A model generated the notes under the pieces. It saw only the letters and a program-made list of their open reading frames with translations, made no database searches and was not told the origin of the DNA. Below are positions 3,601 to 26,355 of a DNA stretch of 64,000 bases, piece after piece. Within the stretch, counting starts at the first letter, position 1. Each line of letters begins with the position of its first letter. The position numbers were made by a program, and so were the translations under genes. This stretch comes from Amphiscolops sp. MND2022 (Eukaryota), in the NCBI GenBank assembly GCA_964187785.1, contig OZ076409.1, positions 73,782,001-73,846,000 on the forward strand. The letters run 5' to 3'.

Positions 3601-6600
3601 GTTTTTTAAACGAGGACTCCAGACAATCACAATTGGTAAGTATAAACCTCAGCAGCTGACATCTACTGAATCAGTTCTTAAAATGGATAGTGTCGATAGT
3701 GACGTGCATGTAAACCGCTTAGGAACCGCTTGCGCTTCCGAAACACCTGATCTTTTTGTTACTTTTACATGTAATCAAAAGGAACATCCTGGAGTTGCTG
3801 AGTTAGTTCAGGCCATTTTTGACATCTACAGAAACGCGTCGGTTGAAGAATTGAAAGAAGTGCTGCAGTCTTACATGGTCATCATTGTAAGATGTTGGAC
3901 TAGGACAATTGAACTTTTGATTAATTACTTAAGATTTTCACACGAACATATTTTAGGAGAAATTTCAAAGGTTTGGGGTAGGGCCGAATTTCAGAGCGCC
4001 GCAGCGAATTTGCAACATTACCATATTCTGTTCTGGGTAAAAAATGTTGATGAAGATGTCATAGACAAAATTGCTTGTGCACACAAAAATGTTTTTGCTG
4101 AGTTTGAAAGACTTTTCAATGTCAATTTTGGTACAGTCGACAGTATTGAACACGTAGTTAAGTTGTTCGATGATTGTGTCCGTGTTCAAACACACGACTG
4201 TGAGAAAGGACATTGCTTAAAAAAGGTTAGGATAAATGGAGAAAGAAAATGTCGTTTCCCACCGTACCCACAGAGCCATGTTCCCTGGTACAAGGAATTC
4301 CATCAGCCGCATACACACGAGGCCTTAGAAGTTCTGCAGGAAATTGATTTAGCTGAACCAATGCCTGGTTTTTATAACACTTTGCAGGTCACTTCTACGC
4401 TGAAAGCAGGTAAGTATATGTATGCGGCTCAAAAGGGGGAGCATATGTCACCGCTCAATGTGCCTCTGTGGAGTATTTGTAAATCGAGCCTCAATGTTTT
4501 GAAAGTGTGTAAGTCTGTCGCGTCGAGGTATTTGACATCGTATGCCGCGGGAAAAGAAGAACACGCTGAGGTTTCCATCAACCCCGAAAATTCTCACAAT
4601 GTTTTAAATGTACAAGTTCAAAAAATTGAAAACAAAAAGTTAGGCGGAGTCAGGAAAATTTTAGCTCGTGAAGCAAAGCAGGAGAAAACTCAGGGTATAA
4701 TAGATTCGACAACAATTGCCAGTACAGAATGTGTTTCGTGGATGTTGCAGCTTCCTACCGTAATAACAACAATGGATTTTGTTTCGGTTCCAAGTGTTTC
4801 GCTCGAAAATCGCGGTGGAGTTATTTTGAAAAGAAAAAACAATACTCAGTCAAGATCTAACCGTCCAGGTATAGCGAATGAAGGTCCAGCCGAAATCAGA
4901 GAACATCATCTACATTTCCCTAATCACAGACTTTTCACACCGGGACAAAAAATTGTTTTGGAAAGTGTAAACAAAACACCTTTTAGTACCGATAAAGTTA
5001 CTGTTTTTTCCATACGTCCCCCTGAATTGCTTTTTGTCAACAAACTGAAACTTTATTACAGGTGGTTCGTGCGAGAAAAGTTGCCAGGTAAAAAAGAAAC
5101 AATTTGTGTTAGGTTTTTGAAAAATGATGTCAGAGATTCAACATGGGTGGATGGTGAAAACAAGGCCATTCGTTTAAGACCGTGTGCTGTTGACGAATTT
5201 TCAAATTACATACAGGATTGTCTACTTCAAAACTCAGCTGATAATAGGCTGCTTGATGCTATGCTTGTAGTTTCTGAAGTAATCAACAATTTGTCCCATC
5301 CTAATCGATCATTTTTTGTTTCTGCTGACCCGAATTTGTCGAATACACCAGCTGAAGTCGTTTTTTCAAAAGTTTATCCACGCAGTCCCGCAAACTTTTT
5401 GATTCATTTTTTGCTTTCGAACGCCAAATTTGAAACCGAACTAGAACTTTTTGACGTTGCCACTTTAAAAGACGCTTTTGTGAAAGGTGAAATTGTTCCA
5501 GACAAGCAAACTTTCGACGAACAGGATGTTAATGAAATTTTGAAAAAATACGTTCTTGAACAATTGAGGTACTTACCAGGTGGTACAAGGTCGTTTGATT
5601 CGAATTTGTTGGCTGCAAAATCTGCCTTCAAAGGTATGTTGATTGAAAACGACATTTATAATGAAGGGTTGCCAATCACCACGATGGATACTTTGACTGA
5701 AGCACTGGAGGACAGAGCAAAAACGATGCTTCGTCAGTCACAAGTGAACATCATTAAGTCATTGACTCAGAAAAATTTACCGAATTTTCCGTCTTCTGCT
5801 GATTTTGAAACTGTGACCAAAGAAACACCTTCCAATTGGTCCGCTGAATTGATAACAAATGTTTTTCAGTCTGCTGAGTCAGTTCAAGAGCAATCCCTAA
5901 TTTTGGAAACTTTGAAAAATCTAATTGTTGAGAGTTTGTTTGCAGGTCACAAGTTTAATAAACATCAGCTAATTTTAGGTCCTCCGGGGACTGGTAAGAC
6001 TTACGTGTTGACAATGGCGTTAGGTTTTGCTTTATCAAAAGGTTTGTTTTGTCTTGTCACGAGTTTGGCATCCAGAAGATCGATGCACTTTGGAGGTGAA
6101 CACATACATAAACTGTTTTGCTTGCCACCTTCTTCGTCAGGGTCCCCAATCAAAATGGCTGAGCAAGCATTGACAAAACTGGACCACAGAAACGACAAGA
6201 AGATGCTCCTCCTGGCTTTGGAAGTGCTGTTCGTTGAAGAAGTAAGCTTGATAAGCGCCGAACAGTGGTCTGCAATGGACATTACATTGCAGGAGTTGAA
6301 GCAGTCAAGTCTGCCTTTTGGTGGCGTACTGGTAATTGCGAGCGGAGACCAGATGCAACTACCATCCATTGACGGCAATGACATCTTTCTTAGTCCGGTA
6401 CTTTTGACAAACTTCGCATTGTTTTTTCTCGGACATTTCGTTCGAATGACCGATAAAGACGGTCAGACTGTGCTTCGTCACATGTGGAAGCGTCCGATCA
6501 ATCCTGCCGCTGTCGCTGAGATTCTGGCAATTTTGGATGCCAAATGTACCTTTAAAGACAGTTGGGCGGACCTCGACGATCCGTGTGTTATGCGTGTTTT

Positions 6601-7759
6601 CGGAAAGCGGAAAGCCGAGCAAAGGGAGTTTGATAGTCACATTGAGCGAGTACGCGGCTCCGGAATTGCGTTTAAGATCTTCGAAGCTACGGACGAAATT
6701 TGTCTTTCTAAGAGCTCTGTTTGGAACCTTACTAACTCAAGACAGGTAAGTAATTATTTGAGTGATAAGGTAAATGAGCCGGAAAAACTGATAATTTACA
6801 AGAAGGCTCTGGTGAGGGTCACCGTTAATTTGGAATCCGAGCAGTTGTCGCAAGGTCAGGTAGGTGTAGTCCACGAGGTTCCCACCGGTGACTCGGTCAC
6901 AATTCACATCCCCGATACAAGTGGTGGCGATTTTGACATCACTCCGGCGATGTTGGAACACGAGGAGTACCTTAACTGGCGAACGGTGACTCTTTCCAAA
7001 CAAACAGGGTTTGTGCAACCGTTCAAGAAGAACTCCATCCGAAGATGTCAAATTCCTTTGATGAACAACGTTGCCATGACCACGCACAAACTGATGGGTG
7101 ACACGTTCGACAAGCTGGCGACGTCCATCTCCGCAACTGACAGCAGCTACGCATTGTGGATGACGTCGCAAGTTTTCGTGATCGTCAGTAGAGTTAAGCA
7201 GTTGAAAAACCTGACGTTCGTCGGAAACAAGTCGGCTACGTTGGACGCGATAAGATCTATTTTTGAAACTAAGGACTTGCGCGAAGAGCGTCTTTTCTCG
7301 TTGTTGGATAAAATAAGGAACAATTCGAGATCTGGTTCTACTGTTCAACCCATCGACGTTTCGCAAATGTCATACGTTCCCTTCAATAAGAACATACCGC
7401 GGACGCCTTATGGATTTGTTTACCTTTTGATAAGCCTTAACCCGACATCGCCTCAAACGTTTTACGTTGGTCAAACTGAGCGCGCATTGTTAACACGTTT
7501 GTCGGAACACAATTGTGGCAACGGGTCCGATTTCACTAAAACACCTCACAGGATGCCTTGGGCCGTCGCAGCGTTCGTTTGTAATTTTTCGTCATCTATT
7601 TCACGCCGCGATTTTGAACAAGAACTGCACAGCGAAATGTACGAACGCCGTCATCGGTTGAAAACGCTCAACAACATGATCGCTCTTTTCCAGGAGAAGG
7701 TTTCGGAAAGAAATTGCGGACTACATTTTTGCGTGTGCGGACAGTATAGGGCTACTTGA
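641..7759 (+). CDS. Helitron-type Rep/helicase transposase with C-terminal GIY-YIG endonuclease, 2372 aa
   Basis: Rep motifs: PDLFVTFTCN (~3746), EFQ..LQHYHILFW (HUH at 4016-4024), QTHDC..C..CRFP, YLTSY (4529-4543). Pif1 motifs: GPPGTGKT (5978-6001), FVEEVSL, FGG..SGDQMQLP, RRCQIPL..AMTTHKLMG, QVFVIVSRV. GIY-YIG: GFVYLL..FYVGQT..RLSEHN..PW..FE (from 7412). Cys/His clusters and an RG-rich basic N-terminus; ATG with A at -3; no stops or frameshifts. Confidence 0.95.
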   Translation: MPRGRGRGRSRSNQRRCHVHNTFLGSDGICVRCQELSQQHEGGDRVVEDTNPPVPPDAPNDVETTSVERVDVEMCAKCCRTSTDIYRLDFQSIHTYSLHTTMFGKPTSEILDETVTLCQHCARYNDNPNRHKDWSNAWPSVMYTLLFETHRFSSNTEKLFKLLPHEIRTSYMQHLNNVYPAFTLNNHDSVFRDITREKDDFLTLINTRTAKNLVTALNKYCFPNIRCPAGCFEFIEKTEGISFAHFLNYLYPLFTSFKADSKKFLKGAREDFLKPLELLEKFKISPCLIVSEKGLQLVTCSDHKNGVLLKYVHVPTNPVATNISPKFSDRLALMVSSVRTVRPLKIGVKSATFTMCRVDSGRISGVSSTVLHHFRNFEAPYNVRRIDVEKLIFNCRSDVKDLIRTCCQRFEITENIANEFLSFECPVALTAIEESCKDATVFNMKALMNMKDYVESCPDEISSHDDFKKPLIFGHRLDGYGCEPLQVPKTILQEPNFFSLIFAFLYSPSLWSKLISLSQEHEQLRNVCHIFGRIRNNKRLQEHRTIPSVLNGLQSALNELFHRPCDPLVELCELLEGCQVENFNRNEISRIAIDCSRNDVVLITSNDLVGSRDLQIPFQVTSNNGKIFELTFISSGEKLSLRHGAPFFNFWTVKNDGSRACKDPTLEYQYNRNWKYLIYVSETQVNDDPKIRYLKYMGGQGVLFCREHNLPLTSDYFKSNRKCSLPKNTTNNAICTRKSAWRCPEKNCCASSCKTHFNDFCDSTDRVLVDNTPSADPIQDSSDEEIELRNEIDVQGNLDQPGPSFVLPEVERPEDTDANMDEFDCPQLIVDAGFQETNNFATDSGCEPVYLANDSKFVPMHVLLNGECQLMKRLRYPTHTGKKFQRFFQNFVSTLEGRSIPLLQPEACLFPSIFYKQLEDGSFPGALPFFLYDDKFANSKLDFDGLHEHIRLRLKDGSLLTSANLAYIMYAFDCVLNLSLTKCHTNQFFKRGLQTITIGKYKPQQLTSTESVLKMDSVDSDVHVNRLGTACASETPDLFVTFTCNQKEHPGVAELVQAIFDIYRNASVEELKEVLQSYMVIIVRCWTRTIELLINYLRFSHEHILGEISKVWGRAEFQSAAANLQHYHILFWVKNVDEDVIDKIACAHKNVFAEFERLFNVNFGTVDSIEHVVKLFDDCVRVQTHDCEKGHCLKKVRINGERKCRFPPYPQSHVPWYKEFHQPHTHEALEVLQEIDLAEPMPGFYNTLQVTSTLKAGKYMYAAQKGEHMSPLNVPLWSICKSSLNVLKVCKSVASRYLTSYAAGKEEHAEVSINPENSHNVLNVQVQKIENKKLGGVRKILAREAKQEKTQGIIDSTTIASTECVSWMLQLPTVITTMDFVSVPSVSLENRGGVILKRKNNTQSRSNRPGIANEGPAEIREHHLHFPNHRLFTPGQKIVLESVNKTPFSTDKVTVFSIRPPELLFVNKLKLYYRWFVREKLPGKKETICVRFLKNDVRDSTWVDGENKAIRLRPCAVDEFSNYIQDCLLQNSADNRLLDAMLVVSEVINNLSHPNRSFFVSADPNLSNTPAEVVFSKVYPRSPANFLIHFLLSNAKFETELELFDVATLKDAFVKGEIVPDKQTFDEQDVNEILKKYVLEQLRYLPGGTRSFDSNLLAAKSAFKGMLIENDIYNEGLPITTMDTLTEALEDRAKTMLRQSQVNIIKSLTQKNLPNFPSSADFETVTKETPSNWSAELITNVFQSAESVQEQSLILETLKNLIVESLFAGHKFNKHQLILGPPGTGKTYVLTMALGFALSKGLFCLVTSLASRRSMHFGGEHIHKLFCLPPSSSGSPIKMAEQALTKLDHRNDKKMLLLALEVLFVEEVSLISAEQWSAMDITLQELKQSSLPFGGVLVIASGDQMQLPSIDGNDIFLSPVLLTNFALFFLGHFVRMTDKDGQTVLRHMWKRPINPAAVAEILAILDAKCTFKDSWADLDDPCVMRVFGKRKAEQREFDSHIERVRGSGIAFKIFEATDEICLSKSSVWNLTNSRQVSNYLSDKVNEPEKLIIYKKALVRVTVNLESEQLSQGQVGVVHEVPTGDSVTIHIPDTSGGDFDITPAMLEHEEYLNWRTVTLSKQTGFVQPFKKNSIRRCQIPLMNNVAMTTHKLMGDTFDKLATSISATDSSYALWMTSQVFVIVSRVKQLKNLTFVGNKSATLDAIRSIFETKDLREERLFSLLDKIRNNSRSGSTVQPIDVSQMSYVPFNKNIPRTPYGFVYLLISLNPTSPQTFYVGQTERALLTRLSEHNCGNGSDFTKTPHRMPWAVAAFVCNFSSSISRRDFEQELHSEMYERRHRLKTLNNMIALFQEKVSERNCGLHFCVCGQYRAT

Positions 7760-7781
7760 AATTCATTATCTTTTTCTTTAA

Positions 7782-8002: not shown

Positions 8003-8027
8003 TTTTTTTAACATTGATTTAATTTGG

Positions 8028-8199: not shown

Positions 8200-9725
8200 G
8201 GTGGAATCGACGATAACCGTGGTTCCTTGTTTAAATGTTTTTAAAAGTACCAGGGTAGGAATAAAGAAGAAAGTGACAATGACGTAACGGACTGAACAGA
8301 TGACGACGATCTAGAAGAAAGACTAAAAGTGTAAAAGCTTGTGTACTCCTTCCAAGCTTATACACAACTTTTAAAAAAATTACCATCAAACCATATAACC
8401 AGTGTGGCAGCACGTGTACTCTTTGAGCTTACCACGCTGACACACTCTACGTAAATAAAGATCGTCAAATCCCAAAAACTGAAATATCATACCAAAACCG
8501 GACTTTCCCAAAACCGACTTTTCCACTACGACTTTTTGACTAAAACTTAAAGACTGAAACTTAATTGACTGAATTTAACTCTTTTCCTACTCCTACAATT
8601 GGTTTTCCCTGAGTTTAGCTAGAAGGTTGAGTTGAGAGAAGACGAGATAGACCTCAGAGTAGCAGCAACCGCGGTAATTTCCGAATTACAATATTTTTAA
8701 TAGTTTGGACAGGAAAACTTAGATAGAGTAATAGTTTTTCTGGAACCATATATATGGCTATAAACATCTTTTTCAGTCCAGGCGATGTCCTGGCCGGCGA
8801 AGCCTTGTGCCAGGACGGAGCCCTATTAGAGGTTGATCATCAGAAACGATTGTTTTTATTATTTGAAATTTTACAATGCTGCTACTAGTCAAAACGTGAT
8901 CAGAAGAACGAAGAATATTCCGAAGATGATATTATTCAATATCTAATATAGTAAAATTTATAGCAAAAGTCATAGCTATAAGTCTGACATGTTTTTCGTG
9001 CTTCACTTTTTTGAAAGGTTGTAGGTTTAGGATAGGCTGTAGCACATCAGAATCAGTCCCTGCGAAGGTTCAGTCGAATGTCTCTCATCAAAAAAAGCTA
9101 CGATTCCAGTCATAGCAAAAGTTATTAGGTTAAAATACTATCCACAACAGAGTTCCCTTTTGCTTAACCTACTTTTCATGTTTGTCTCTCCGTCATATGG
9201 TGAAAACATTGCAAGATGAAAAATGAAAACGAAATTTGTAAAAACAACTTATGTAGTAATGGAAGGCTTTGGTTGTTATTGGTTTTTGGGAATAAAAAAT
9301 ACGGAAGAGTTGTTCACCATGTTAACTGGGACAAGCATGGAAAGCCACTTCATTTTAAGATATCTCATCATCATAAGGGCGGTGTTATCTCTCATCCATA
9401 AGGTGTGGAGGTTGTCATTTTGAATCGTTCTCAAGTTTGAATACAATAATTTATCGTCCTTTTGAGATAATCATTACGAAAATTTTCGTCCAAAACGTCT
9501 ATCCTTCACATATCCGCACATTAGGCTAGCAGTAATCATAGCGGTTATTGTAACTTACTATCGAAGTCAGAACGTTTCCATGAAGAACATATATTAAGAT
9601 CCGGGAAAATCTCATTTTGTATCGACAGTGTATTATCTATACACAAGTATTATATCCAAACTACTTTTGTTCGTCTCGTTTATTGATTTGATTGCCATTA
9701 TGTTTTCAGTTCTTGTTTGGTAACA

Positions 9726-10694
9726 ATGCCCGGATATTTGAAAGCATCGTTGACGCTGGCCCAAGCTCGTCAAACAGTGACCGATCGCTATACAGTTAGC
9801 AATACCACCATTCTGACAGCTGACCAGACTCCACGGTTCTTCTGCGTTCCATTTGTTTTCCTGTACGCATCTCCGTCTGCAGGAAAGAAGCTCTCTTTCG
9901 TAAAAACGCAAAGAAATGACACAAGGAAAACAAAGTTCATGGAAATTGAGAAGTTCCACCGCTTTGTTTTGTTGGGATCAAGAGCAACAGAAGAAGTATT
10001 CGCAATGTTTACAGATACGGCTCTGGAAACCCACAACCTCTTCCGATATCAAAACAATGTTCTGCCTGGAACCATCGTACATGTCCTTAATCCAAAAGTA
10101 GAGGGGCTGTTGAGAGCTACCAACACAACCCTACTCTCCTCGATAGAACCACTGATTCCAAATCAAAATCAGCCGGTTATAAATCTCGAACTTCCACACT
10201 CCCTAGAAATGGCCACTTTTCGGTATTTCGAGTTTATCTCCACGACAATAACCATTACGTCTGCAACAGCTACCGAAAACGTATGTCCCAGTGGGTTCTG
10301 CGATGCGCAGTTTGTGTTACAGAATTGTGGCTGCTTAGCCGTTTCGTCAAAAAAGAAATGGGCCCTGACGCTGGTAGTAGATAGCGATGAGTTCGCTCCA
10401 CTAGAGGACGTGGACAATGTGTACATAACCTCTAATCATGTAACAGATCTTTTTGTGTCGGCAGAGAGGCAGGAATTGTCGCCGAACTCAACGGACTTCG
10501 ATCCATTTGCAATGGACACGGCCATTGTAAATATGTGCCAAGCAATCAATGGAAACGGGGGGTTCATTGTAAAAGGCTGGTTTAAGCCAAGCTCAACAGA
10601 CGATGGCGCCACCAATGAAGTGAAGCGGGTTCATGTTTGCCTGTTGAAAAATTATAACGACCTTACCGATGCCATTGCACAGATGAAATATTGA
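9726..10694 (+). CDS. 322-aa protein, putative RPA1-like ssDNA-binding protein (OB-folds with Cys4 Zn ribbon)
   Basis: Long clean ORF in AT-rich DNA, same strand as RepHel; first ATG at 9726 (ORF track starts at TTG 9717), with TTTTCAG just upstream. PGTIVHVLNP looks like an OB-fold strand and CPSGFC..CGC..KWALTLVVDS resembles the RPA70 C-terminal Zn-ribbon OB-fold. Coding status is likely; the product call is by eye only. Confidence 0.6.
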   Translation: MPGYLKASLTLAQARQTVTDRYTVSNTTILTADQTPRFFCVPFVFLYASPSAGKKLSFVKTQRNDTRKTKFMEIEKFHRFVLLGSRATEEVFAMFTDTALETHNLFRYQNNVLPGTIVHVLNPKVEGLLRATNTTLLSSIEPLIPNQNQPVINLELPHSLEMATFRYFEFISTTITITSATATENVCPSGFCDAQFVLQNCGCLAVSSKKKWALTLVVDSDEFAPLEDVDNVYITSNHVTDLFVSAERQELSPNSTDFDPFAMDTAIVNMCQAINGNGGFIVKGWFKPSSTDDGATNEVKRVHVCLLKNYNDLTDAIAQMKY

Positions 10695-11522: not shown

Positions 11523-11598
11523 GGAATCGACGATATGCGTGGTTCCTGGTAAGCTTAAATCAGTCTCATTTGGTGAAATTGGCGATAGTCGTGGTTCC
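11523..11598 (+). repeat. Two further 52-bp-spaced copies of the ATCGACG-N5-CGTGGT hairpin (second degenerate) near the element right end
   Basis: GGAATCGACGATATGCGTGGTTCC at 11523 and GAAATTGGCGATAGTCGTGGTTCC at 11575. Confidence 0.75.
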
Positions 11599-11793
11599 AA
11601 GTTTGCTTATTTTGAATTTGAGTATAACTATGTAACGACAACCCTTCCGCATTCTCTAACATCATTAACCACTAATTAACCTCTCAACCAACACCCGACT
11701 GAAGACGATTCTTCTCCAATCACGTAAGTAACTTTTTTCTCTTTTTAACACTTTCCCGCCTACTGGACTCTTCGTTTTGCCGTCCACGTCTAG

Positions 11794-14700
11794 GTGGTCG
11801 GTATTCTTTACTACCTCATGCTTTGAGGGCGGGGTAGGGCCCCTCGCCCGATCCTAATCCTTAGGATTTTAAACATAAGGCGAAAAGACCAAATGAAAGC
11901 GATCTCGAAAACTAACCTTACGATTTGGCTGAAATTTTGCATGCGGCTCCCTATGACAGATATAAGAACAAATCCCTACTGGCATTTTGCTGGGAAAATT
12001 CAGTTTTTGGGTCAAAATCACTATTTTAGGTCCAAAAAATGGCGTTTTTTCGGAAAATTTTTTTTCAAGAGCCAATATCTCGCTCCCAGGTGCTCGGAGC
12101 GGGTCGCATGTGGACGTTGATATTGCTGGGCACTTCGTAAGGAGTCCGTAGACAAATTTTGGTTCGGATCGGATGAAAATTGATAGAGTAATAGCCGCCG
12201 ATTTGGCGCATTTTTTCGCAAATTTTCGAAAACCTAGTCTATCTCTGCCGTTTTTTGCCCAGATTTTTTTCCAGGACCTCTCCTAAAGGCCTCCCCTGGC
12301 CGGTTTACCTCCCAGAAAAACCATTTGGCCCTTTTGCCGCAGTTTCAGCGTTCCAGGATTCCCCGGGTAAAATTAAAATGACTTAGAATTTTTTCGAAAA
12401 ATTTTCAAAAATTTTTTTTTTCAACTTCTTGCTCCCCAAAGTCAGGAAACTTCCACACAACTAGTATTGCAAGTGAATGCATGTGGAAAGTGCTCGAATA
12501 GACGAGAAAAATGAGCTATTATAAAACTCTGTAGCTTAACCTGACGTTGACTTATGACAATTTTTGTGTGAGCTTGCTATGTGAGAAAAAATTTCAAAAA
12601 TTGAAAATCGAAGATAAGTCTCATCCAAAACTCATCGGAATACGTTCAATCCATCCCAAAGCGGATTAATTCAAGCTATATAGTGCAGCAACACCATTCA
12701 AGGTCATTTAACCTATATTTATAATTTTTGACACCGTCTTATCCATTCGAAAGTTGAAGCAGTTAAGTACATTCCATCTCCCCTCCGTGGGAGATGGTAA
12801 TGTACGCGCAAAAAGCCAAGTACTATTGCCCTTTTTCTACATGGAGTGGACCTAGAAATGCATTAGCGTGAGCTCCACGCTGCTTGCAGTAGCCCTTACA
12901 GGTGTTGTACCTTTGTTACAAAACTAACTATGTTACTAATCATAAAAAAATGTTACAATCGAAAAATTATTTTCATTAATTATATTTACACGTTTTGTTG
13001 TCAATTACAATAACTACAGCTACCGCCCTGGCCTGATTGTTCAACCGTGCACGTCTAGGTGCCCGGATTTCTATTCATTAAAGTATGTTGCGCGTGTGGG
13101 TAGGGCCCCTGGCGCGCTCTTGTGTCCCTGTTCTCATAACTGCAATTTCCGGCAGCATTCTGAGCGATTTTCTAAACTATCCATACGATTCGGCTGAAAT
13201 TTGGCATGTGAGTTCCTATGACAGTTCTAAGAAACATTTCCTACTGGCGTTTTGCCCGGAAAATTTTTTTTGTTGACTTATAACGGTTTTTTTGGCCAAA
13301 AAATGCGATTTTTTCAAAAAAATTTTTTTTCGGAGCCCATATCTTTTTTCAGGGTGACCGGAGCGGGACGCGTTAAACTGATTATAAACTCTACGGTTCA
13401 TGGGCTTTACGGAGAACCTAGGCTCGTTTCGATCGGACAAATAGTCTTGGAGATATAACGGCATTTTTTGGGAATTTTTTGGAAATTTTTCTAACGGTCC
13501 AGCTTATCTTTGCCATTTTTTCGAAAATGTACTCGCCTAAAGGCCTCCCCTGGCCGGTTTTAATCCCAGCAAAACCATTTGGCCCTAAATACGGAGTTTC
13601 AGCGTTCCAGCATTCCCGGGCGAAAAGTTGTGGGACTTAGAAAAATTTCAAAATTTTTCAAAAAAATTTTTTCCGTTTTCCGCACTCCCCCCCGAGGGGA
13701 AAAGACCCCCCAACCAGTAATTTGAGTGAATTCATGTGGAAAGGCCATGTTTAGAGAAGAAAAATGCCGTTTAGATCGTCTTTTTATTTTAACCTGTCGT
13801 TGACTTATGTTGTTTTGAAGGTGATGTTTGGATGTGTGAAGCATGTGAAAAGGTAATTTATTGTGTCTTTAGCTCTTCTAAAAGTCATTGAGATACACGG
13901 TGTGTGACTCAGAACGTGTTTAATTCTAATTTAGCAATGCATCAACACTTTTTTGTGTCTTTTGACTCTGTTTTAAAAAATTTTTCCGACTAAAATCAAA
14001 AATTATTTATAATTATTCACATTTTTTTTCTGATCTCATGACTCCAAACAGTTGAGTACATTCCATCTCCCTTCACGGGGGAGATGAGAATGTACTCTTT
14101 AGAGACCAGGTACTACAGTACTTACCTTCCCCGAGCAACGCCCCATAAAAATTGCGTTTTGATCCAGATATTTTGACATAATTTTATCTTTGTAATTTGA
14201 CTGGAAATGAAGAAAATGCCGCACGTGCTCTTTTATATCAAGTATCTTAACAACGCCATCTCTTTTACGTCAACGCCCCATAGTTCACATCAACGCCCAC
14301 CGTCCGTGGGCATGCCGAGGCATGCCCTTCGACGATGTATACCAAGATATACCTTGAGCGCGTTAGCCTAGGTGCCATAATCCATTGATTAGCTCAACAC
14401 TTCGAGGGCGGGGTAGGGCCCCCAGCCCGAGTCAAAAGTCGAAGACTAACAACTTAAGGCCCATGGTACCTCGAGGTATCGATTTTCTAAACGAGCCATA
14501 CGATTTGGCTGAAATTTTGCATACGGCTTCCTATAACAATCCTAAGAACTAATCCCTCCTGGCGTTTTGCCCGGAAAAATCAAAAAGTGGGTCAAAATCT
14601 TAGTTTTTTGGTCGAAAAATGGCGTTTTTTCGAAAAATTTTTTTTCAAGAGCCCATATCTCGCCCCCAGGTGCTCGGAGCGGGTCGCACGTGGACGTTGA

Positions 14701-15656
14701 TATTGCTAGGCACTTCGTAAGGAGTCCGTAGACAAATTTTCGTACAGATCGGATAAAAATTGACTGAGTAATAGCCGCAAATCCGACGAATTTTTCAGAA
14801 AATTTTGGTACATCTAGTCTATCTCTGCCGTTTTTTGCCCAGATTTTTTTCCAGGACCTCTCCTAAAGGCCTCCCCTGGCCGGTTTACATCCCAGAAAAA
14901 CCATTTGGCCCTTTTGCCGCAGTTTCAGCGTTCCAGGATTCCCCGGGTAAAAGTAAAATGACTTAGAATTTTTTCGAAAAATTTTCAAAAATTTTTTTTT
15001 CAACTTCAAGCCCCCCAAAGTCAGGAAACGTCCACACAACTAGTATTGCAAGTGAATGCATGTGGAAAGTGCTCGAATAGACGAGAAAAATGAGCTATTA
15101 TAAACCTCTGTAGCTCAACCTGACGTTGACTTATGACAATTTTAGCGTGAGCTTGCTATGTGAGAAAAAATTTCAAAAATTGAAAATCGAGCTAAGTCTC
15201 ATCCAAAACTCATCGGAATACGTTCAATCCACCCTAAAGCGGTTTAATTCCAGTTACTAAGTGCAGCAACACCATTCAAGGTCATTTAACCCATATTTAT
15301 AATTTTTGACACCGTCTTATCCATTTGAAAGTTCGAAACAGTTGAGTACATTCCATCTCCCCTACGTGGGAGATGGTAATGTACTCGCAAAAAGCCAAGG
15401 TCCTACCGCCCTATTCTATCCGGCGTTGCATCAGAAATGCAGTAGCATGAGCTCCAGGTTGTTTGCAGTAGCCTTTACGTATGTTGTGACTATTTATTAC
15501 AATTCTAACTCTGTTACTAAACATGAAAAAATTGTTTCAATCCCAAAAATTTTCATTTCAACTTTAGTATGTCACCAATAAACATATATGCATCTTTCCT
15601 ACTACAACCACCCTACCACCCGGCCCCTTGTCCACTGTTCAACCGTGCACGTCTAG
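11794..15656 (+). mobile_element. Cassettes U1-U3, family A (1265, 1313, 1285 bp)
   Basis: Shared core AAAGGCCTCCCCTGGCCGGTTT..AAACCATTTGGCCC and GTACATT..AATGTAC hairpin; bounded by CTAG|GTG. Confidence 0.8.
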
Positions 15657-17847
15657 GTGGAGGTTATTTTATAATAATTAAAGTGTTTTTTTCCGGAGTT
15701 TGTGGCTTTGGAAAAAACAAAAGGCGAGAAATTGGGCACTCCGGGCTGAACCGTATACACTCAAAATTCGCCCAATATTTATACGATCTCGAAACCCAGC
15801 CGTACGATTTGGCTGAAAATTTGCATGCGGCTAAAAAATCAGATTCTAAGAACTATTTCCTGCTGACATTTTTTTGAAATTTTTGTGTACGTTTCCCCCC
15901 CGCCCCCTAAAGGGGTCAATTTTCCCCAATTTTGCACTTATGAGTCAAATTCTCAAAACTGGTGGATCTGAGCGTATTCCCAGCGGGGACAACTTTTAAC
16001 AAGCGCTCTTCAGTAGACCTTTTTGACTTTTTACTTTGGTGGTAGGTTCACCCCCCAAGGAGGAAATGGCGTTTTTGTGACTTCCGGTCGAGACTTTTTT
16101 TCACCCAAAAAATTGAAATAAGCCAGTTTTGAGCAGGAAGGAGTGGATTTGAAGTGTCTGTACCCTGCTAAAAATTTGTTGGGCTTGTAGCGATATATCT
16201 CATACCAAGTCTGGTTTTCATCCCCAAACCCCCCTTGAGACCAAAATTCAAACAAACATTTTACCTCTATTTGTCGTTTTTTTCACAAAATGTCGTCATT
16301 TCTATCGGCAAAGATTTGAATTAGGGGCTCCTAATAGCGTACCAAAGTTCAAGTACACTTGGAGTGCAATTGAGTGACCCTTTTTGGGCCTCTCGTGTGT
16401 TCGGCAATGACCGGAAGTGGTATAAACCCCCCTTTTTGACGTTTGTTGACCTTGAGACTCGCGCTTAGATGACGTTTGTGTCGCGCAAATCCTACAAACC
16501 AGTATTAGGATGACATGCTAGCCAACTAGAGAGCAATAAGGGAAACTATACTATACCGGAAGTAACCCCCTCTTGACCGGAAGTTGTCATTTTTGACCGG
16601 AAATGGTCCAAAACCTAGCGTGAAAGCAGTTTTTCATTGCTTTTAATGTCAACTTAATACTTTTTTCACTCTGCGCGAGCTTGCCTTCAGGTCCGTTAGT
16701 GTTGCCCGTGCACACTGCAACAAATATACATCTGTAAAGATTTGGCTATAATTTCGTCGGAGAGAGAAATAACGGATTTTTGTGATTTTTTTTCAAAAAT
16801 ATTAGTCTTTATCTGTCATTTTTACTCAACGTTATTGAAAAGTAGAACCACAGGTGTTAGTCTCTGCACAAATATATGTCTAACAAAAGCACTTGTTCCA
16901 TTGGTTGCAGTTTGAGCGATCTAGTTTTGCCTCGTCACAAGTTAGGGGACTTGAAAAACTTTCAAAATCTTTTCCGAACTTTTTTCTAAACGTCACGTCT
17001 CTCAAAGTTAAGAAACTTCCTCACAACTAGGACTGCAAGTGAATGCATGTGGTAAGACCTATAAATGGAGAGAAAAACTCCGTTTAGGACGTCTCTTTAT
17101 CTTAACGTGACGCTAAGAGATGTTGCTTTGAATGTGAGTTTGATAATGCGTCGAGAAGTAAAAGCGTGTAAATGGAACCTTTGTCTCGATAAATACTCAT
17201 TGCACAACACGCGATGAACCCCAATTACCCTCAGTTTCAGTTGTTTAGTACATCAACGTCTTCCAAAGACCTTTTATCTATTTTGAAAAGTGTCGAAATC
17301 AATATTGATATCAGTTATCATGAAACACTTGAGTACATTCTCATCTCTCCCCATCGGGTGAGATGAGAATGTTCTTGCTAAAAGCCAGGTACTACGGCCC
17401 CCTTTTGTTTTAATACGATGCATTCTCTGCTTTAGCACATATATATTTTATTTCGCCTGATTGCTTGTATACTCTCTGACTTGTTGTTATAAATCTCTCG
17501 TCATTACTTTACATAAATATACAACCAAAAATCATTATCGTCAACGCCACATACATTTAGACGCCCACCATTCCGTAGGTATGTCGAGGCATACCTTTCG
17601 ATTACGTATGTCAAAACGCAAACGCGATAAAAAGTGCTGAAAGTCTGAAACAGTGACAAACAATTTAGACTATTTGACATATGGTAGGTTTTAATATGGG
17701 AGTTACACATCACTGACATTTCACATCATTCCAGCTGACGCCCACATACCAACATCAACGCCCACCGTCCGTGGGCATGCCGAGGCATGCCCTTCGACGA
17801 CGTATGCCAATTTCTGCATATCTACACTCAATTGCGGTAGCAGCTAG
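15657..17847 (+). mobile_element. Cassette U4, family B (2191 bp)
   Basis: Homologous throughout to U11; ACCGGAA clusters; diverged family-A-like 3' half; GGGCATGCC palindrome before the terminal CTAG. Confidence 0.8.
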
Positions 17848-19237
17848 GTGGTTGGGGCGGTCCCCAGAACGCACAAGGAGGCGCGGGGAGGGTCCTGCGC
17901 CGACGTAGAATAATTTCATATAATACTAGTATCCTACATGGGTGTTTTAGAGGCGATTTTGGAATCTAACCGTAGGATTTGGATAATTTTTTGCATGCGG
18001 CCATAACTCGAAATTCTAAGAACTTTTTCCTACTGTCATTTTCCCCGCAAATTGTTTTTTGTTGACTTATGGCCGAAAAACCGGAAATAACGTCCTTTTT
18101 AGACGTTATATCCGAAGTGTCGTCATAACTTTTTTCCAGGGCATGCTAGCGTTCTCGTTCACTTTTACACTTAGTTGCAGCATCTCAAAATACAACTGGT
18201 GGAAAATTTTGGTTGCATTCGGATCACCCCCCACCGAGATAGAAGGGTTCCCCCCTCCAGCTTTACCCCCCAAATTTGCAAAATAGCCAATTTTGAGCAT
18301 GAAGCCGAGGATTTAGCGTACCCGCACCCTCCTGATGTTTTGTTGTACGTATTGGGGTCAATCTGACGACATGTGTGGTTTTCACCCCCAACCCCCCCTT
18401 GGACCGGAAATGACACTTTTTTGTGTTTTTTTGCAGAATTTAGCCTTTTTCATTATTAGGCAGTCGTTTTAGGGACTCCTAGCAGGATATCGAAATTGAA
18501 ATACAACCTGATCACAACCCAGTGACAATATGTTGGCCACTTGGAGGTATCATCATGACCGGAAGTGGGGTCAACGCCCCTTTTTGTGACCGCTTTTTGA
18601 CCTTGTGCACCAAAATGCCAACATCTTGAGGCCTAATGAGGCATTCAAATCTGTACAAAGATAAAATGTTAGACAACCGAAGTCCCGGAAGATCTTTAGC
18701 ATATACCGGAAGTTACCCCCCATGACCGGAAGTTACCCAATGTGACCGGAAATGGTCCAAAAATTAATGTAAAGTTGAATTTTTCACTATTTCAAGACCA
18801 GTTAATTGAAACTTTTCAATCTCAAAACTAGCGTACTGGCTTGTTTTGCTGAATTTATGGAAATTGATGAGCTCTATCGCCCCCGATAGCCTTCGAAGTT
18901 GACCTTGCGTCAACTTTGGAGGCTATCGATAGAGAAAAATGAACAACAAAGTACATTGTTGCTCTCGTTTTTTTTCCCGTTGTTTTTCCTCAAACATTTT
19001 TGAGACATATACATGGCCGTTAGTTGAAATCAATATTTAGCCCATGTTATAGCTGGAGCAGCGAAGCGTTACACAGACTAGTGTGGTTTTGAAATCACAC
19101 TATTTAAATTAACAACTGACCGTCTTAGTCAACTCCACACATTCATACCAACGCCCACCGTCTGTGGGCATGCCGAGGCATGCCCTTCGACGACGTATGA
19201 CGAATCCACTCCAACGACACCCGCAGTCCTCAGCTAG
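17848..19237 (+). mobile_element. Cassette U5, family C (1390 bp)
   Basis: Near-identical to U12 and U23; CGATAGCC..GGCTATCG hairpin at 18884-18928. Confidence 0.8.
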
Positions 19238-22200
19238 GTGCCCAAATCCATCGATTTACCTTCATTTTGAGGGCGGGGTAGGGCCCCCGACCGGCTCTTC
19301 AGGCTTTAGACTGGCAACTTTAAGCCATTTCGCAAAATGGAAGCGATTTTCTAAACGGCCCATACGATTTGGCTCAAATTTTGCATACGACTTCCTCTAG
19401 CGATTCTAAGAACTTTTCCCTACTACCATTTTGCCCGGAAAATTTTTTTTGTTGACTTATAGACAATTTTAGGTGCCAAAAATGGCGTTTTTTCGAAAAA
19501 TTTTTTTTCAAGAGCCCATATCTCGCTCCCAGGTGCTCGGAGCGGGTCGCATGTGGACGTCGATATTGCTAGGCACTTCGTAAGGAGTCCGTAGACAAAT
19601 TTTCGTACAGATCGGATGAAAATTGACTTAGTAATAAAAAACTTTGATTTGCATTTTTTCGAAAATTTCTGAAAACCCAGTCTATCTCTGCCGTTTTTTG
19701 CCCAGATTTTTTTCCAGGACCTCTCCTAAAGGCCTCCCCTGGCCGGTTTACCTCCCAGAAAAACCATTTGGCCCTTTTGCCGCAGTTTCAGCGTTCCAGG
19801 ATTCCCCGGGTAAAAGTAAAATGTCTTAGAATTTTTTCGAAAAATTTTCAAAAAAAATTTTTTTCAACTTCAGGCCTCCCAAAGTCAAGAAACGTCCACA
19901 CAACTAGTATTGCAAGTGGATGCATGTGGAAAGTGCTCGAATAGACGAGAAAAATGAGCTATTATAAACCTCTGTAGCTTAACCTGACGTTGACTTATGA
20001 CAATTTTAGTGTGAGCTTGCTATGTGAGAAAAAATTTCGAAAATTGAAAATCGAAGCTAAGTCTCATCCAAAACTCATCGGAATACGTTCAATCCATATC
20101 AAAGCGGTTTGTTCCCAGTTGTAGAGTGCAGCAACACCATTCAAGGTCATTTGACCCACTTTAATAGGTTTTGACTTTGTCTTATCCATCCGAAAATTCG
20201 AAACAGTTAAGTACATTCCATCTCCCCTCCGTGGGAGATGGTAATGTACTCGCAAAAAGCCAAGTATAACCGCCCTATTCTACCCGTAGTGGTGCTAGAA
20301 GAGCAGTAGCGTGAGCTCCAGGTTTGCAGTAGTCTCTATGTGTTATAATTATATTTTTCATAGCTAAAAATCTTACTAAACGTGATAAAAAAAATTACAT
20401 CACTCAAAATTTTTTCAAATATTATTATATGTCCCCAATTGACGCACGTCAACTATTTCACTACAACCACCCTACCACCCGGCCCCTCGTATCTTTGTTC
20501 AACCGTACACGTCTAGGTGCCAATCCCCCCCGGGATGCCACAACTTCGAGGGCGGGGTAGGGCCCCCTGCCCGAGTCCAAAACCAACGGCGCTAAACTTC
20601 GCGCCAGAAACTTAAGGCGTTTTCCATTTCTAGAGGCGATCTCGGAAACGGCCCTATAGAATTGGCTCAAAATTTGCATACGGCTTCCTCTAGCGATTCT
20701 AAGAACTTTTCCCTACTACCGTTTTGCCCAAAAAAATTTTTTTGTTGACTTATAGACAATTTTAGGTGCCGAAAATGGCGTTTTTTCGAAAAATTTTTTT
20801 TCAAGAGCCCATATCTCGCTCCCAGGTGCTCGGAGCGGGTCGCATGTGGACGTCGATATTGCTAGGCACTTCGTAAGGAGTCCGTAGACAAATTTTCGTA
20901 CAGATCGGATGAAAATTGACTTAGTAATAAAAAACTTTGATTTGCATTTTTTCGAAAATTTATGAAATCCCAGTCTATCTCTGCCGTTTTTTGCCCAGAT
21001 TTTTTTCTAGGACCTCTCCTAAAGGCCTCCCCTGGCCGGTTTACCTCCCAGAAAAACCATTTGGCCCTTTTGCCGCAGTTTCAGCGTTCCAGGATTCCCC
21101 GGGTAAAAGATAAATGACTTAGAATTTTTTCAAAAAATTTTCAAAATTTTTTTTTCAACTTCAGGCCTCCCAAAGTCAAGAAACGTCCACACAACTAGTA
21201 TTGCAAGTGGATGCATGTGGAAAGTGCTCGAATAGACGAGAAAAATGAGCTATTATAAACCTCTGTAGCTCAACCTGACGTTGACTTATGACAATTTTAG
21301 TGTGAGCTTGCTATATGGTAAAAAAATTCAAAAGATGAAAATTGAAGCTAAGTCTCATCCAAAACTCATCGGAATGCGTTCAATCCATCCCAAAGCGCTT
21401 TGTTCCCAGTTGTAGAGTGCAGCAACACCATTCGAGGTCATTTAACCCATATTTATAAGTTTTGACACCGTCTTATCCATCCGAAAGTTCGAAACAGTTA
21501 AGTACATTCCATCTCCCCTCCGTGGGAGATGGTAATGTACTCGCAAAAAGCCAAGTATCACCGCCCTATTCTACCCGTAGTTGTGCTAGAAATGCAGCAG
21601 CGGGAGCGCCAGGCTGTTTACAGTAGCCTTTACGGGTGTTGTGACTATGTATTACAAATCTAACTATGTTACTGAACGTGAAAAAATTGTTTCACTCCAA
21701 AATTTTTTTCAACTATTTTATGTCATCAATAAAGATATATCCATCTTTCCTACTACAACCACCCTACCACCCGGCCCCTCGTATCTTTGTTCAACCGTAC
21801 ACGTCTAGGTGCAGATCCCCTTTGGGATGCCTTAGTTTCGAGGGCGGGGTAGGGCCCCCAGCCCGAGTCCTAGTAAAAACAACGTAAGGCGATTATAACA
21901 GTCTCCTATCGATTTTGGAAATGGCCCATACGATTTCGCTCAAATTTTGCATACGGCTTCCTCTAGCGATTCTAAGAACTTTTCCCTACTACCGTTTTGC
22001 CCGGAAAATTTTTTTTGTTGACTTATAGACAATTTTAGGTGCCGAAAATGGCGTTTTTTCGAAAAAATTTTTTTCAAGAGCCCATATCTCGCTCCCAGGT
22101 GCTCGGAGCGGGTCGCATGTGGACGTCGATATTGCTAGTCACTTCGTAAGGAGTCCGTAGACAAATTTTCGTACAGATCGGATGAAAATTGACTTAGTAA

Positions 22201-24363
22201 TAAAAAACTTTGATTTGCATTTTTTCGAAAATTTATGAAATCCCAGTGTATCTCTGCCGTTTTTTGCCCAGATTTTTTTCCAGGACCTCTCCTAAAGGCC
22301 TCCCCTGGCCGGTTTACCTCCCAGAAAAACCATTTGGCCCTAAATACGGAGTTTCAGCGTTCCAGGATTCCCCGGGTAAAAGTAAAATGACTTAGAATTT
22401 TTTCGAAAAAATTTCAAAATTTTTTTTTCAACTTCAGGCCTCCCAAAGTCAGGAAACGTCCACACAACTAGTATTGCAAGTGAATGCATGTGGAAAGTGC
22501 TTGAATAGACGAGAAAAATGAGCTATTATAAAGTTCTGTAGCTTAACCTGACGTTGACTTATGACAATTTTAGTGTGAGCTTGCTATGTGAGAAAAATTT
22601 TCAAAAATTGAAAATCGAAGCTAAGTCTCATCCAAAACTCATCGGAATGCGTTCAATCCATCCCAAAGCGGTTTAATTCCAGCTATATAGTGCACCAACA
22701 CCATTGAAGAACATTTGATCCATATATAAAAGTTTTGACACCGTCTTATCCATTTGAAAGTTCGAAACAGTTAAGTACATTCCATCTCCCCTCCGTGGGA
22801 GATGGTAATGTACTCGCAAAAAGCCAAGTACTACCGCCCTATTCTACCCGGAGTGGTGCTAGCAATGCAGTAGCGGGAGCGCCAGGCTGTTTACAGTAGC
22901 CTTTATGGGTGTTGTGACTATGTATTACAAATCTAACTATGTTACTGAACGTGAAAAAGTTGTTTCAATCCCAAAATTTTTTTTCAACTTTAATATGTCA
23001 CCAATAAACATATATCCATCTTTCCTACTACAACCACCCTACCACCCGGCCCCTCGTATCTTTGTTCAACCGTACACGTCTAGGTGCCGGTGTTTTCTTC
23101 ACTTTTAAGGATGTTGCGCGTGTGGGTAGGGCCCCTGGCGCGCTCCGTTATCCCCCGGTTTACAACTTAGAAAATTTGAACAATTTTTTGGGATCTCGAA
23201 AACTGGCCACACGATTTGGCTGAAATTTTGCATGCGGCTCCCTATGACAGTTGTAAGAACTAATCCCTAGTGGCGTTTTGCCCGGAAAATTTTTTTTGTT
23301 GACTTATTCACATTTTTAGGGTCAAAAAATGGCGTTTTTTTGAAAATTTTTTTTTCAGAGACAAATACTCGAAACTGGTGCACCCAGCGCAGTAACGCCT
23401 AGCTGATTTATTGTTGGGCATTTCATGAGGAGTCCGTATACAAATTTTCGTCCAAATCAAATTAAAATTGATTGAGAAATAACTGAAAATTTGAGGAATT
23501 TTTTTGGAAATTTTCGAAAACCCAGTCTATCTCTGCCGTTTTTTGCCCAGATTTTTTTTGAGACACTCTCCTAAAGACCTCCCCTGGCCGGTTTTCCTCC
23601 CAGCAAAACCATTTGGCCCTAAATACGAAGTTTCAGCGTTCTAGCATTCCCGGGCGAAAAGTTGTGGGACTTAGAAAAAATTTTTGGAAACGCAAAATGT
23701 GTAAAGTCAACTTCAGGCCTCCCAAAGTCAAGGAACTTCCACACAACTAGTATTGCAAGTGGATGCATGTGAAAAGTACTCAAACAGACGAGAAAAATGG
23801 GCTATAGAACGACTCTGTAGCTTAACTTGACGTTGACTTATGACAATTTTAGTGTGAGCTTGCTGTGTGAGAAAAAAATTCAAAAGATGAAAATCAAAGC
23901 TAAATCTCATCCAAAACTCATCGGAATACGTTCAGTCCATCCAAGAGCGGTTTAATTCCAGCTATATAATGCAGCAACACTATTCAAGACCATTTGATCC
24001 ACTCACATTAGTTTTGACACCGTATTATTCTTCCGAGAGCACAAAACAGTTGAGTACATTCCATCTCCCTTTCGGGGGAGATGAGAATGTACTCGCTAAA
24101 GTCCAGGTACTACAGTCCATATTTGTTTTTATGCGACGCTCTTATGGTTTGTATGCTAGTGCGTACACGTAATAATCTCTTAACCTATTTTTTGTTGTCT
24201 GCAGTTTGACTTTGACTTGACATAAACTGAACGTTTTGTCCTTACAACAGACATGACTAACGTCAACGCCCCATCCTTGCATCAACGCCCACCGTCCGTG
24301 GGCATGCCGAGGCATGCCCTTCGACGACGTATACCAAGATATACATCGAGCGCGTTAGCCTAG
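19238..24363 (+). mobile_element. Cassettes U6-U9, family A (1279, 1292, 1275, 1280 bp)
   Basis: Family A core with four different heads; internal unit starts at 20517, 21809, 23084. Confidence 0.8.
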
Positions 24364-26355
24364 GTGGGCGGTAGGTTTCCCGTAGTCAAAAAAAAATTGC
24401 AGGCCGGGGTAGGGGCCCTGGCCGAGGCAAAATACCATAGAAAAGGTACCAAATTATGTGAGTTTAGAAAATTGAGCCATACAAATTCTCTGAAAATTGC
24501 TGTGTGTACCCTATCGCCCAATCTAAGAACTTTTTCCTGCTGACGTTTTGCTCTCCAAATGTTACTAATATGACTTTTTGAAAAATTTATCTCTGGTTTT
24601 TCATCAAAAATAGTGATTTTGGCAATTTTTGTGAAATATCTCTGATTGCATTAATTTTTGGACGTTGACTGTGAAACAAGGTCGGAACCATCATTTCGTG
24701 ACCATGGCAATGCACTAAACACAAAAGATGTAGAGTTTTTAAATTTTTTGAAAATTTGACTTTTTTAAATTTTTTTCACTACTATCAGTACCATATATGT
24801 CAAAATAACCTCAGAAAAATTTTTTTATTTTATTTAATTTAGAATCCTTGCTATCCATGGTTTCTGTTAGTATCTACTCGCTGCCAGAGACTCAACAGTT
24901 AACATCGAATTTGAAATTAAAAATTTTTTCGAGGTCATAGGTGTTTCACAAGGATTTCACAACATAGTCTTGTTTTACAAATAGGTCATTTACAACATCA
25001 TATTTTCATCGAGGCATGTCGGATATAGTCTTATTGCTCACGAACGGTCCTACTGGCAACGTAATAACCATTTATAGAAATATAAAGTTTTTAAAAAATC
25101 TTTTCACCCGTTCTTCAGACATTTTTCAGACATTCGGAACTTAACTTAGAAAAATTTCGTCTCAAAAACCCATTTTTCGTCAAGTCGAAATTTGAAATTC
25201 AGCTTTTGAAGCACAAATATGCACTCTGACGTAACCAGTAGGGCCAATGATACTCAACAACACCATTGAGACTGGTATCAGTCGCTCCAAAAACATATGA
25301 GCCGTGATAAGACGTTTTTTTCAACAATACTGTTCAATTGATGTAAACATCGCGGAAGCCTTGGATTACAGTGAAAGTTGATTTGAACAAAAATTTACTC
25401 TTTTTTGTCAATCACTATGTAGACAAAATGCGTAGGGTAAGTTTCAGCACTAATATGAAGATTTTGAAGGAATCGGGTTGCTCAAGGCGTGGTATGAGAC
25501 ACTTTTTTCTCATATACTAGTGTTTTTCAAAACCTTTTCGTTAAATATCTCGAAAAGCAAACATTAAAAAATACTTTCTGATATCTAATTTAATTCCTAG
25601 ACTATAAATGAATCATGTGGTTGATCAGAAACTCTCTACTTTAATGTTTCAAGAAAAAAATCCCTTCCCATGTTTTATATCTGTAGCAGTAAAAAGTAGA
25701 CGCTAAAAAATACGCTATTTTGCTAAGGTTGAATTGCAATTGTTTAGCTTTAAAACTCTTTTAATACTTCTAACGCCACCTTAAGGACTCAAGATGATTG
25801 AAAATGTCAATCACAATGCTGACATGTAGTCTTTCTACGATCCTGGCTGGACAGATTTTGATTATTTTTCAAGTACCTGTTAACTGAATCTCGTGATAGC
25901 CTTCTAAGTTGACCTTCTGCGTCAACTTGAGAAGGCTATCACTAAAATAAACTAAATTCTGATTTGTTTGTTTGTTCCTAACGTCTTTTGGTACGATCGT
26001 CTTACGGTTAGTTGGTTAAACCAGGTCGCTTATACTTCCACAATTTTCGACCACCGTCCGTGTATTCGGTTCACACGACTTTACATTTTCAGTCGTTTGT
26101 TTTCGATAACTATCACAATGTACTGCCATTAGCGCAAAATTCATACTAGTACTTGGTTGGTTGAAATACTTAAACAACTGTTTCCATAGTTATTCGCGGT
26201 GATGGTACAATCCGCGCGCCTACATACCTACGGCGTCTTGTCACTACAACGCCACATAGGGAAACAACGCCCATAGTCCGTAGGCATGCCGAGGCATGCC
26301 TTTCGACGACGCGCGCCAAATCTATGCGCGCCCGCACTTGTGCGGTAGCTGCTAG
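24364..26355 (+). mobile_element. Cassette U10, family D (1992 bp)
   Basis: Near-identical to U15; GTGATAGCC..GGCTATCAC hairpin at 25893-25942. Confidence 0.8.

Follow-up and report, generated by a model that had tools for sequence, protein, structure and literature searches.

How does a transposase recognise the first nucleotides of its own elements when these come in many sequence types? The question is raised by a 64,000-nucleotide (nt) stretch of DNA from Amphiscolops sp. MND2022 (contig OZ076409.1, positions 73,782,001 to 73,846,000 of the forward strand; numbered here from its first letter and called the window throughout), in which the gene for a RepHel protein of Helitron type stands directly upstream of, and on the same strand as, a long array of gene-less units. 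Each unit begins with a hairpin, H2, and its comparison between units indicates that H2 is part of a real, strand-specific 5'-end structure which also includes a second hairpin, H1, in a little-described branch of Helitron-like transposons. We propose, with a probability of about 0.6 and by analogy with studied Helitrons, that the head hairpin is a 5'-end signal, likely folding on the displaced plus strand, which would be read together with H1 by RepHel as the start signal. The features on which the argument turns are as follows, with plus-signed positions counted from the first base of a unit.

11790..11796, plus strand: the junction heptamer CTAGGTG, where the 3' end of the RepHel-bearing element is joined to the start of the first unit (U1).
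11794..64000, plus strand: the array of gene-less units, 38 in number, of which 37 are complete, 1070-2193 bp long and of 19 types at 90% identity.
11825..11851, plus strand: H2 in U1, with a foot of tandem GA/GA, a 5-bp covarying lower stem, a small bulge, a G-C upper stem and a purine-rich loop.
11832..11842, plus strand: the sequence-conserved apex of H2 in U1 (upper stem and loop), found in 36 of the 38 units and at L003:23-33, L003 being a related locus on a metagenome contig.
15685..15718, plus strand: the family B hairpin of U4 (also in U11), a long T/A-rich stem with three G.T pairs, a loop at +44 to +48 and no apex motif.
11800..11815, plus strand: H1 in U1, a small 4-bp hairpin at about +7 to +22, the arms of which change jointly between subtypes.

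The 38 units are non-coding and run head to tail from 11794 to the end of the window, all in one orientation (GTG...CTAG); grouped by identity, the complete ones fall into 30 groups at 95%, 19 at 90% and 14 at 80%. From 11790 onwards CTAGGTG occurs 38 times on the plus strand and twice on the minus strand. The heptamer is identical at all 38 joins with zero extra bases at any of them, CTAG preceding every unit start (38/38) and GTG following CTAG in every case (38/38). Eleven pairs of units share 95% identity or more, and on 20 of their 22 flanks the exact match ends 3-7 bases past the junction; at the two exceptional flanks the neighbours are of the same unit type. Since the shortest runs of identity beyond the junction are 4 bases upstream and 3 downstream, the break falls inside CTAGGTG without finer placement. 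The original prediction, made from the window's letters, had put the junction at CTAG|GTG; it can be fixed to the heptamer only. By this comparison the units are mobile pieces that move one at a time with breaks inside CTAGGTG, and we infer that the strand break is sited within that heptamer.

H2 is found in the heads of all 38 units if the family B version, which lacks the apex motif, is included. The number of units, their numbering and the stems quoted in the original prediction (U2, U3, U5, U16, U19, U21) match the sequence, and the separate stem that it assigned to family B in U4 and U11 is real and lies in the same region. The apex motif GGG[G/T][A/T]GGG[G/C/T]CC is matched by 36 of the 38 heads, with U4 and U11 as the exceptions, and eight of its positions are invariant in a 15-row alignment described below. 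A looser form of the pattern matches the plus strand of the window at 49 overlapping sites and the minus strand at none; 48 of the sites fall in heads, the other in the RepHel open reading frame (ORF). The apex motif is absent from the interiors of the 38 units scanned. A G-quadruplex at the apex was set aside, there being three G runs there and not four. The hairpin had been described as conserved in structure rather than in sequence, which fits the lower stem and fails for the apex: comparison indicates that the lower stem is conserved in structure alone and the apex in sequence. It had also been placed at a fixed distance from the junction. The spacing is indeed narrow, with the loop A at +42 to +46 in 33 of 36 heads, although across all 36 it spans +42 to +52 (standard deviation 1.95). 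Folding energy in 42-nt segments, calculated at offsets from -320 to +198 in 23 representative units, is strongest at offset +30 (mean -8.3 kcal/mol).

The covariation expected of a conserved stem is present in the heads. With 20 distinct hairpins, arms paired with their own partners score 13.2 on a strand-neutral measure against 10.3 for arms crossed between hairpins; with 11 types, one unit each, the values are 13.6 and 10.0 (permutation p ~1e-4). The same arm swap judged by folding energy agrees in direction (p = 0.001 on the plus strand, 0.01 on the minus strand). A gapless, loop-anchored structural alignment of 14 window types and L003 (15 rows) gives an 11-pair symmetric stem in which 72% of cells are paired, as against 56% in shuffled alignments and 38-53% in slid registers, and the stem holds 29 two-sided changes against 15 in the shuffles, a count reached by 0 of 500 shuffles. 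Heads diverge faster than bodies (33 pairs of units have bodies at least 85% identical and heads below 80%), and the hairpins are nonetheless retained. RNAalifold applied to an unrefined head alignment recovers 6 pairs only. The evidence for H2 is comparative and does not come from the stability of single heads. The U1 head is not significant by itself (DNA z = -0.5), and its minus strand scores slightly better; the folding model that scored the two strands is taken not to reward tandem GA pairs.

The strand that folds is indicated by the mismatches. In 21 distinct stems whose register was set by Watson-Crick pairs alone, G.T mismatches number 19 against 1 A.C, and G.A 17 against 3 C.T, in keeping with the earlier suggestion, drawn from the G-T mismatches, that the plus strand folds. 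Tandem GA/GA pairs, which with H1 go beyond what had been noted before, stand in register in 11 of 20 distinct hairpins, against 1 of 20 for the minus-strand equivalent TC/TC; in the types with a GCGCG stem, Watson-Crick pairs occupy their place. Tandem GA-AG is described as stacking strongly in DNA (PMC8163305). Singleton changes in the unit bodies of four groups of close units comprise 23 C>T and 19 G>A, which shows no strand bias, so strand-biased mutation fails to explain the asymmetry of the mismatches. Taken together, these comparisons indicate that H2 is a real, selected structure of the plus strand.

The same evidence bears on the idea that the stems are nothing but unselected G+C-rich inverted repeats, maintained by template switching or strand-biased mutation, or else double-stranded palindromic binding sites. 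Many single heads do not beat their shuffles, as this would predict, and some pairing results whichever G-rich and C-rich arms are combined (crossed score 10.0). Template switching would yield perfect, strand-neutral palindromes, yet G.T and G.A are kept on one strand; mutation is without strand bias, and the new stem of L003, described below, pairs with itself only. We regard this explanation as very improbable and already largely refuted.

H1, the smaller hairpin, varies in strength between types: it has 5 bp in the U3 group (+7..+11 with +16..+20) and is weak, at 3 bp, in some others. The best Watson-Crick stem at its site averages 4.07 bp in 27 distinct heads, against 3.19 when shuffled, and four control windows give no such excess. 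Seven close relatives have 34 of 35 cells paired and two-sided changes in 4 of 5 pairs, a number of changed pairs that 30 of 500 shuffles also reached. In 24 distinct heads, arms pair better with their own partners than when crossed (3.9 against 2.6 paired, p ~1e-5). By these measures both H1 and H2 covary.

Independent material comes from metagenome contigs, in which a scan with the RepHel alignment found 13 loci. One of them, L003, encodes a RepHel 33% identical in the best segment, and has the apex motif at its beginning (bases 23-33), upstream of the transposase ORF and on the strand that codes for RepHel. The stem beneath this apex is 11 bp long and includes one G.T pair, and the lower stem has at most 5 of 8 bases in common with any window arm; its own arms score 19, whereas none of the 40 crosses with window arms exceeds 16. 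Moreover, L003:21-507 matches unit positions 38-537 (E 1.6e-56), and as this match lies upstream of the RepHel ORF, the units keep about 0.5 kb of an autonomous 5' end, H2 included. The match indicates that H2 is part of the 5' end, or left terminal sequence, of a Helitron-like element, a rolling-circle transposon. The junction heptamer is absent between the L003 head and its ORF. In the viral collection, four loci with helicase motifs only and 25 pattern matches were considered and rejected as chance, 0 of these 29 fitting the head profile; stricter patterns found nothing in the genome contigs or in the viral contigs.

The hairpin might instead work in RNA, as the 5' leader of an element transcript. 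The folding strand is the RepHel sense strand, and both G.U wobbles and tandem GA pairs are typical features of RNA as well. On the other side, Rfam has no match at gathering score in the 64 kb (one weak, unrelated match, E 0.13, lies in 11700-16000), and copies without genes retain the structure at a set spacing from a DNA junction, an observation that a HUH mechanism explains directly. A role in RNA is accordingly judged quite improbable.

Several observations weigh against the 5'-end signal proposed here. Neither the lower stem nor the apex is absolute, the former being partly broken in U6, U37 and U38 and the latter missing from family B. The stem structure tested was picked from the very sequences that were scored, and the two measures least sensitive to relatedness were matched by 128 and 202 of 500 shuffles, the first being at its ceiling of 8. 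Among the 23 representative heads, z falls below -2 in eight on the plus strand and also in eight on the minus strand; with RNA parameters the mean z leans to the minus strand (-1.8 versus -1.4), so that energies alone do not decide the strand. The mismatch counts are not independent because the units are related, and GA/GA, a feature common across types, does not set own arms (6 of 11 self pairings) apart from crossed ones (44 of 110). The head was found in one of the 13 related loci, several of whose contigs end close to the gene, and L003 itself starts about 16 nt inside the head, which leaves its own junction outside the contig. The 5' end of the window's RepHel element likewise falls outside the window, and its 3' region (7760-11793) has no BLAST or profile match to the units except in the last bases.

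The presumed reader of the signal, and a second protein of its element, are encoded upstream of the array.

641..7759, plus strand: RepHel, intact, 2372 amino acids (aa), with Rep motifs I-III (H1126-x-H1128, Y1297, Y1301), a PIF1 helicase and a C-terminal GIY-YIG domain (SLX1-like).
9717..10694, plus strand: accessory ORF of about 322 aa, Cys-containing and without a Pfam family.

RepHel matches the Pfam families Helitron_like_N (E 1e-10) and PIF1 (E 3e-11) in addition to the C-terminal GIY-YIG. H1126, H1128, Y1297 and Y1301 are invariant across 10 aligned relatives, and the Rep motifs form a coherent set in 29 proteins. Searched among 1.84 billion representatives, the Rep region finds 423 clusters at E <= 0.001, which are distant and have Rep motifs of their own; at least 14 clusters, on long contigs, are 79-90% identical over the Rep region, which suggests a young, diversified family. 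The GIY-YIG domain stands at the C-terminus in 12 of 20 long relatives picked among 150 listed, and neither DUF6570 nor an AP endonuclease is present in RepHel and these 20 (21 proteins). Against Helraiser the Rep region gives no match at E <= 10 and the helicase alone matches. By its sequence RepHel is a divergent Helitron-type protein; its element would operate as a Helitron does and is a member of the superfamily, placed in neither HLE1 nor HLE2.

For the accessory ORF, a language-model search offers OB-fold proteins that bind single strands as look-alikes (recognition score 1870, under the mark of 2300). Its predicted structures have a pLDDT of about 30, and the OB-fold reading, taken from the language-model search, is a weak lead. 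A homologue occurs on a distant RepHel contig (L005:1183-2622, minus strand), and one may speculate that the accessory protein is a candidate reader of the G-rich, telomere-like loop. The element that carries these genes ends in the same junction heptamer as the units and may, from its 3' sequence, belong to a different subfamily from them. It also contains minisatellites with units of 65, 52 and 91 bp (1-388, 7815-8002, 8015-8195 and 11503-11609); the 52-bp unit holds an inverted repeat that is imperfect, and it turns up again close to the element's 3' end.

A mechanism can be sketched from Helraiser: nicking of its plus strand takes place at the left end, which is indispensable, and the end determinants lie in the terminal 40 nt; its 3' hairpin is the terminator, and its circles have exact end-to-start junctions (PMC4778049, PMC5876387). 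Helraiser is described as the sole reconstituted element, and although its left end is essential, the dissection reported for it covered the 3' hairpin only (PMC4778049). By analogy, RepHel would nick the plus strand inside CTAGGTG and stay bound to the new 5' end, its helicase would peel off the plus strand 5' to 3', and the first 60 nt could then fold into H1 and H2. The protein would read the G-rich apex by sequence and the lower stem, including the GA/GA pairs, by shape. H1 adjoins the junction more closely than H2 and in tighter register, which makes it the better candidate for setting the cut site; it more likely provides the register of the cut, with H2 as a binding or licensing site. 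Since every CTAG in a circle or an array has a head just 3' of it, termination and insertion could both be licensed by this one structure, which could permit the closing cut and turn an existing junction into the preferred landing site.

The original prediction saw H2 differently: in the manner of IS200/IS605 subterminal hairpins, it would act as a ruler or carry a guide and so fix the nick at CTAG|GTG. The geometry does resemble the left end of IS608, where 19 nt separate the foot of the hairpin from a cut on its 5' side (PMC3201880), most loops (33 of 36) are within +42 to +46, and the plus strand folds. In IS608, however, a guide tetramer at the foot of the hairpin selects the cut (PMC3201880); here no tetramer, only a weak TT, is conserved at the foot of H2, and the loop offset varies from +42 to +52 while the junction is unchanged. 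Complements of the junction are not conserved in the heads either (CACC in 0 of 38, ACCT in 8 and CTAG in 5; these are simple complements, which non-linear pairing could escape). The enzyme, moreover, is a RepHel with a helicase and not a Y1 TnpA. Recognition by a HUH enzyme fits the RepHel gene directly upstream and the head at the 5' end of L003; the IS200/IS605-like positioning of the nick is not supported, given the 10-nt range in spacing together with the lack of a conserved tetramer and the kind of enzyme, and we consider a ruler unlikely.

Whether the head could act mainly at the end of a round depends in part on the tails, which carry structures of their own.

14308..14327, plus strand: perfect 9-bp tail palindrome, shown for U2, lying 43-77 nt before the 3' end in 25 of the 37 complete units.
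12774..12797, plus strand: core of a long hairpin with compensatory changes, shown for U1, about 300 nt before the 3' end.

The palindrome stops 43-57 nt short of the unit end, and by analogy with Helitron1 we infer that it is a candidate terminator. The -300 hairpin occurs in most of the 1.28-kb units, including 10 of the 12 units without the palindrome, reaches up to about 19 bp and -14 to -18 kcal/mol, and has no clear strand preference. Only 2 of 38 tails have a 7-bp stem within 30 nt of the end. Inverted repeats between heads and tails were sought in 19 units without success: the longest complement between a head and its own tail is 5-8 nt (mean 6.6, against 6.2 for other tails). The 3' region of the RepHel element lacks both tail hairpins.

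On this evidence one could argue that the head structures serve mainly to stop the helicase just beyond the CTAG of the unit before or of the circle junction, or to mark the junction as a target, with little role in initiation. The 12 complete units without a palindrome and the RepHel element still end precisely, each unit of the array has a head after it, the 38 junctions are exact throughout, and the interiors of units are free of the apex motif. But most units own tail hairpins, either the palindrome or the -300 hairpin, and a stop signal outside the element would be useless to a solitary copy. A role confined largely to the end of the round seems rather unlikely, and the start signal read by RepHel remains our preferred interpretation.

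The element shares features with several known groups, compared here as they are described in the sources cited. In Helitron2, 5' hairpins are known and compensatory changes in terminal structures have been reported; proto-Helentron has a CTAG end and a 5' stem-loop, and one moss HLE2 family has a GIY-YIG domain (PMC3627910, PMC5148889, PMC11417382). Like Helitron2/HLE2 elements (Fusarium FoHeli1-5, HLE2-reverse, proto-Helentron), the present one is driven by a RepHel and has hairpins at its 5' end (H1 and H2). Unlike them, it has no asymmetric terminal inverted repeats of 8-16 bp (the complement here being 5-8 nt), starts with GTG (or TG/G) rather than T, and lacks DUF6570, as well as the AP endonuclease of Helentrons, in the 21 proteins; it has two 5' hairpins, of which the larger lies 30-60 nt inside and combines a G-rich, conserved apex with tandem GA pairs. 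With HLE1, represented by Helraiser, it shares a CTAG 3' end (which agrees with CTRR), a RepHel on the strand that runs from the 5' end to CTAG, a palindrome in the tails of 25 of 37 units, end-to-start junctions that are exact, and non-autonomous copies that have the 5' region of autonomous ones. It differs from HLE1 in having no 5' TC, in a palindrome 43-77 nt rather than 11 nt from the end and absent from 12 of 37 units, in the 5' hairpin, which is not described for that group, and in the C-terminal GIY-YIG; its Rep finds no match to Helraiser. Helitron-like elements enter host DNA without duplicating the target site, and HLE2 elements insert between T and T; the junctions in the window all join one element to another. 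As in IS200/IS605 (IS608), a strand-specific imperfect hairpin lies 3' of the presumed left cut and its reader would be a HUH enzyme; unlike there, that enzyme is a eukaryote-type, two-tyrosine RepHel of 2372 aa with a helicase, the spacing is variable and the hairpin foot has no conserved guide tetramer.

Pairs of dissimilar Helitrons joined head to tail occur in the maize r1 region (PMC2267711), and bat and plant arrays are cited in PMC5876387. Exact end-to-start junctions between unlike elements in strict orientation are common to those arrays and the present one, which stands apart in having at least 38 units of 19 types with zero flanking or telomeric bases at the junctions. The telomere-targeted Helitrons of Paramecium form a divergent RepHel clade with a special target and differ in their CCAA ends, which lie in telomeric repeats (PMC13085455). 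General context is given in PMC10288648 and PMC6431247. No description of this end design was found in the literature consulted, though the unclassified clusters in the supplements of PMC11417382 (Figs S8, S18, S19) may cover the clade.

The array also records how its units were exchanged. Head similarity tracks the unit's own tail (rho 0.37) and not the preceding tail in the array (rho 0.0). The units are mosaics, with heads and tails swapped onto common bodies (U21/U32, U2/U26, U19/U3), a pattern that hints at recombination between circles. U21 and U32 are identical over their first and last 60 nt while the adjoining sequence is 55-78% identical, as would be expected if tail and head were exchanged as one piece on circles, although this is suggestive only. 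The tree of unit bodies is poorly resolved, 13 of 30 inner branches being open and the units mosaic. U28-U29 (50500-53063) and U33-U34 (56923-59486) form a repeated doublet, the sole site where identity runs far across a junction, which suggests occasional multi-unit copying. The long family B units (15657-17847 and 26356-28548) have no internal junction and look like fusions, their first kilobase resembling the 1.39-kb type and their second the 1.28-kb type. One further conserved stretch is not a hairpin.

11899..11945, plus strand: conserved non-hairpin block at about +106 to +150, common to the units and the autonomous relative L003; a candidate double-strand binding site.

A broader proposal is more tentative, and we hold it to be possible rather than probable: that these sequences represent an undescribed clade of RepHel-GIY-YIG rolling-circle transposons in which one folded single-strand signal (CTAGGTG with H1 and H2) would serve as start, stop and landing site, so that new circles could insert nowhere but at existing junctions and would build up long arrays of mixed cassettes in ordered form. 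A folded signal that is also the landing site would explain 38 exact junctions among mixed types.

Start recognition by Helitron transposases has so far been poorly defined. The array amounts to a natural mutagenesis series, with about 20 different starts beside an intact transposase, and what is retained across these starts is the heptamer, a small hairpin, a G-rich apex and a paired lower stem with GA/GA pairs. Start recognition thereby becomes directly testable with short oligonucleotides. If it is true that the same structure sets the landing site, this would explain the growth of mixed head-to-tail Helitron arrays and would point to a site-specific eukaryotic HUH integrase, a self-targeting, integron-like system whose target is a DNA shape.

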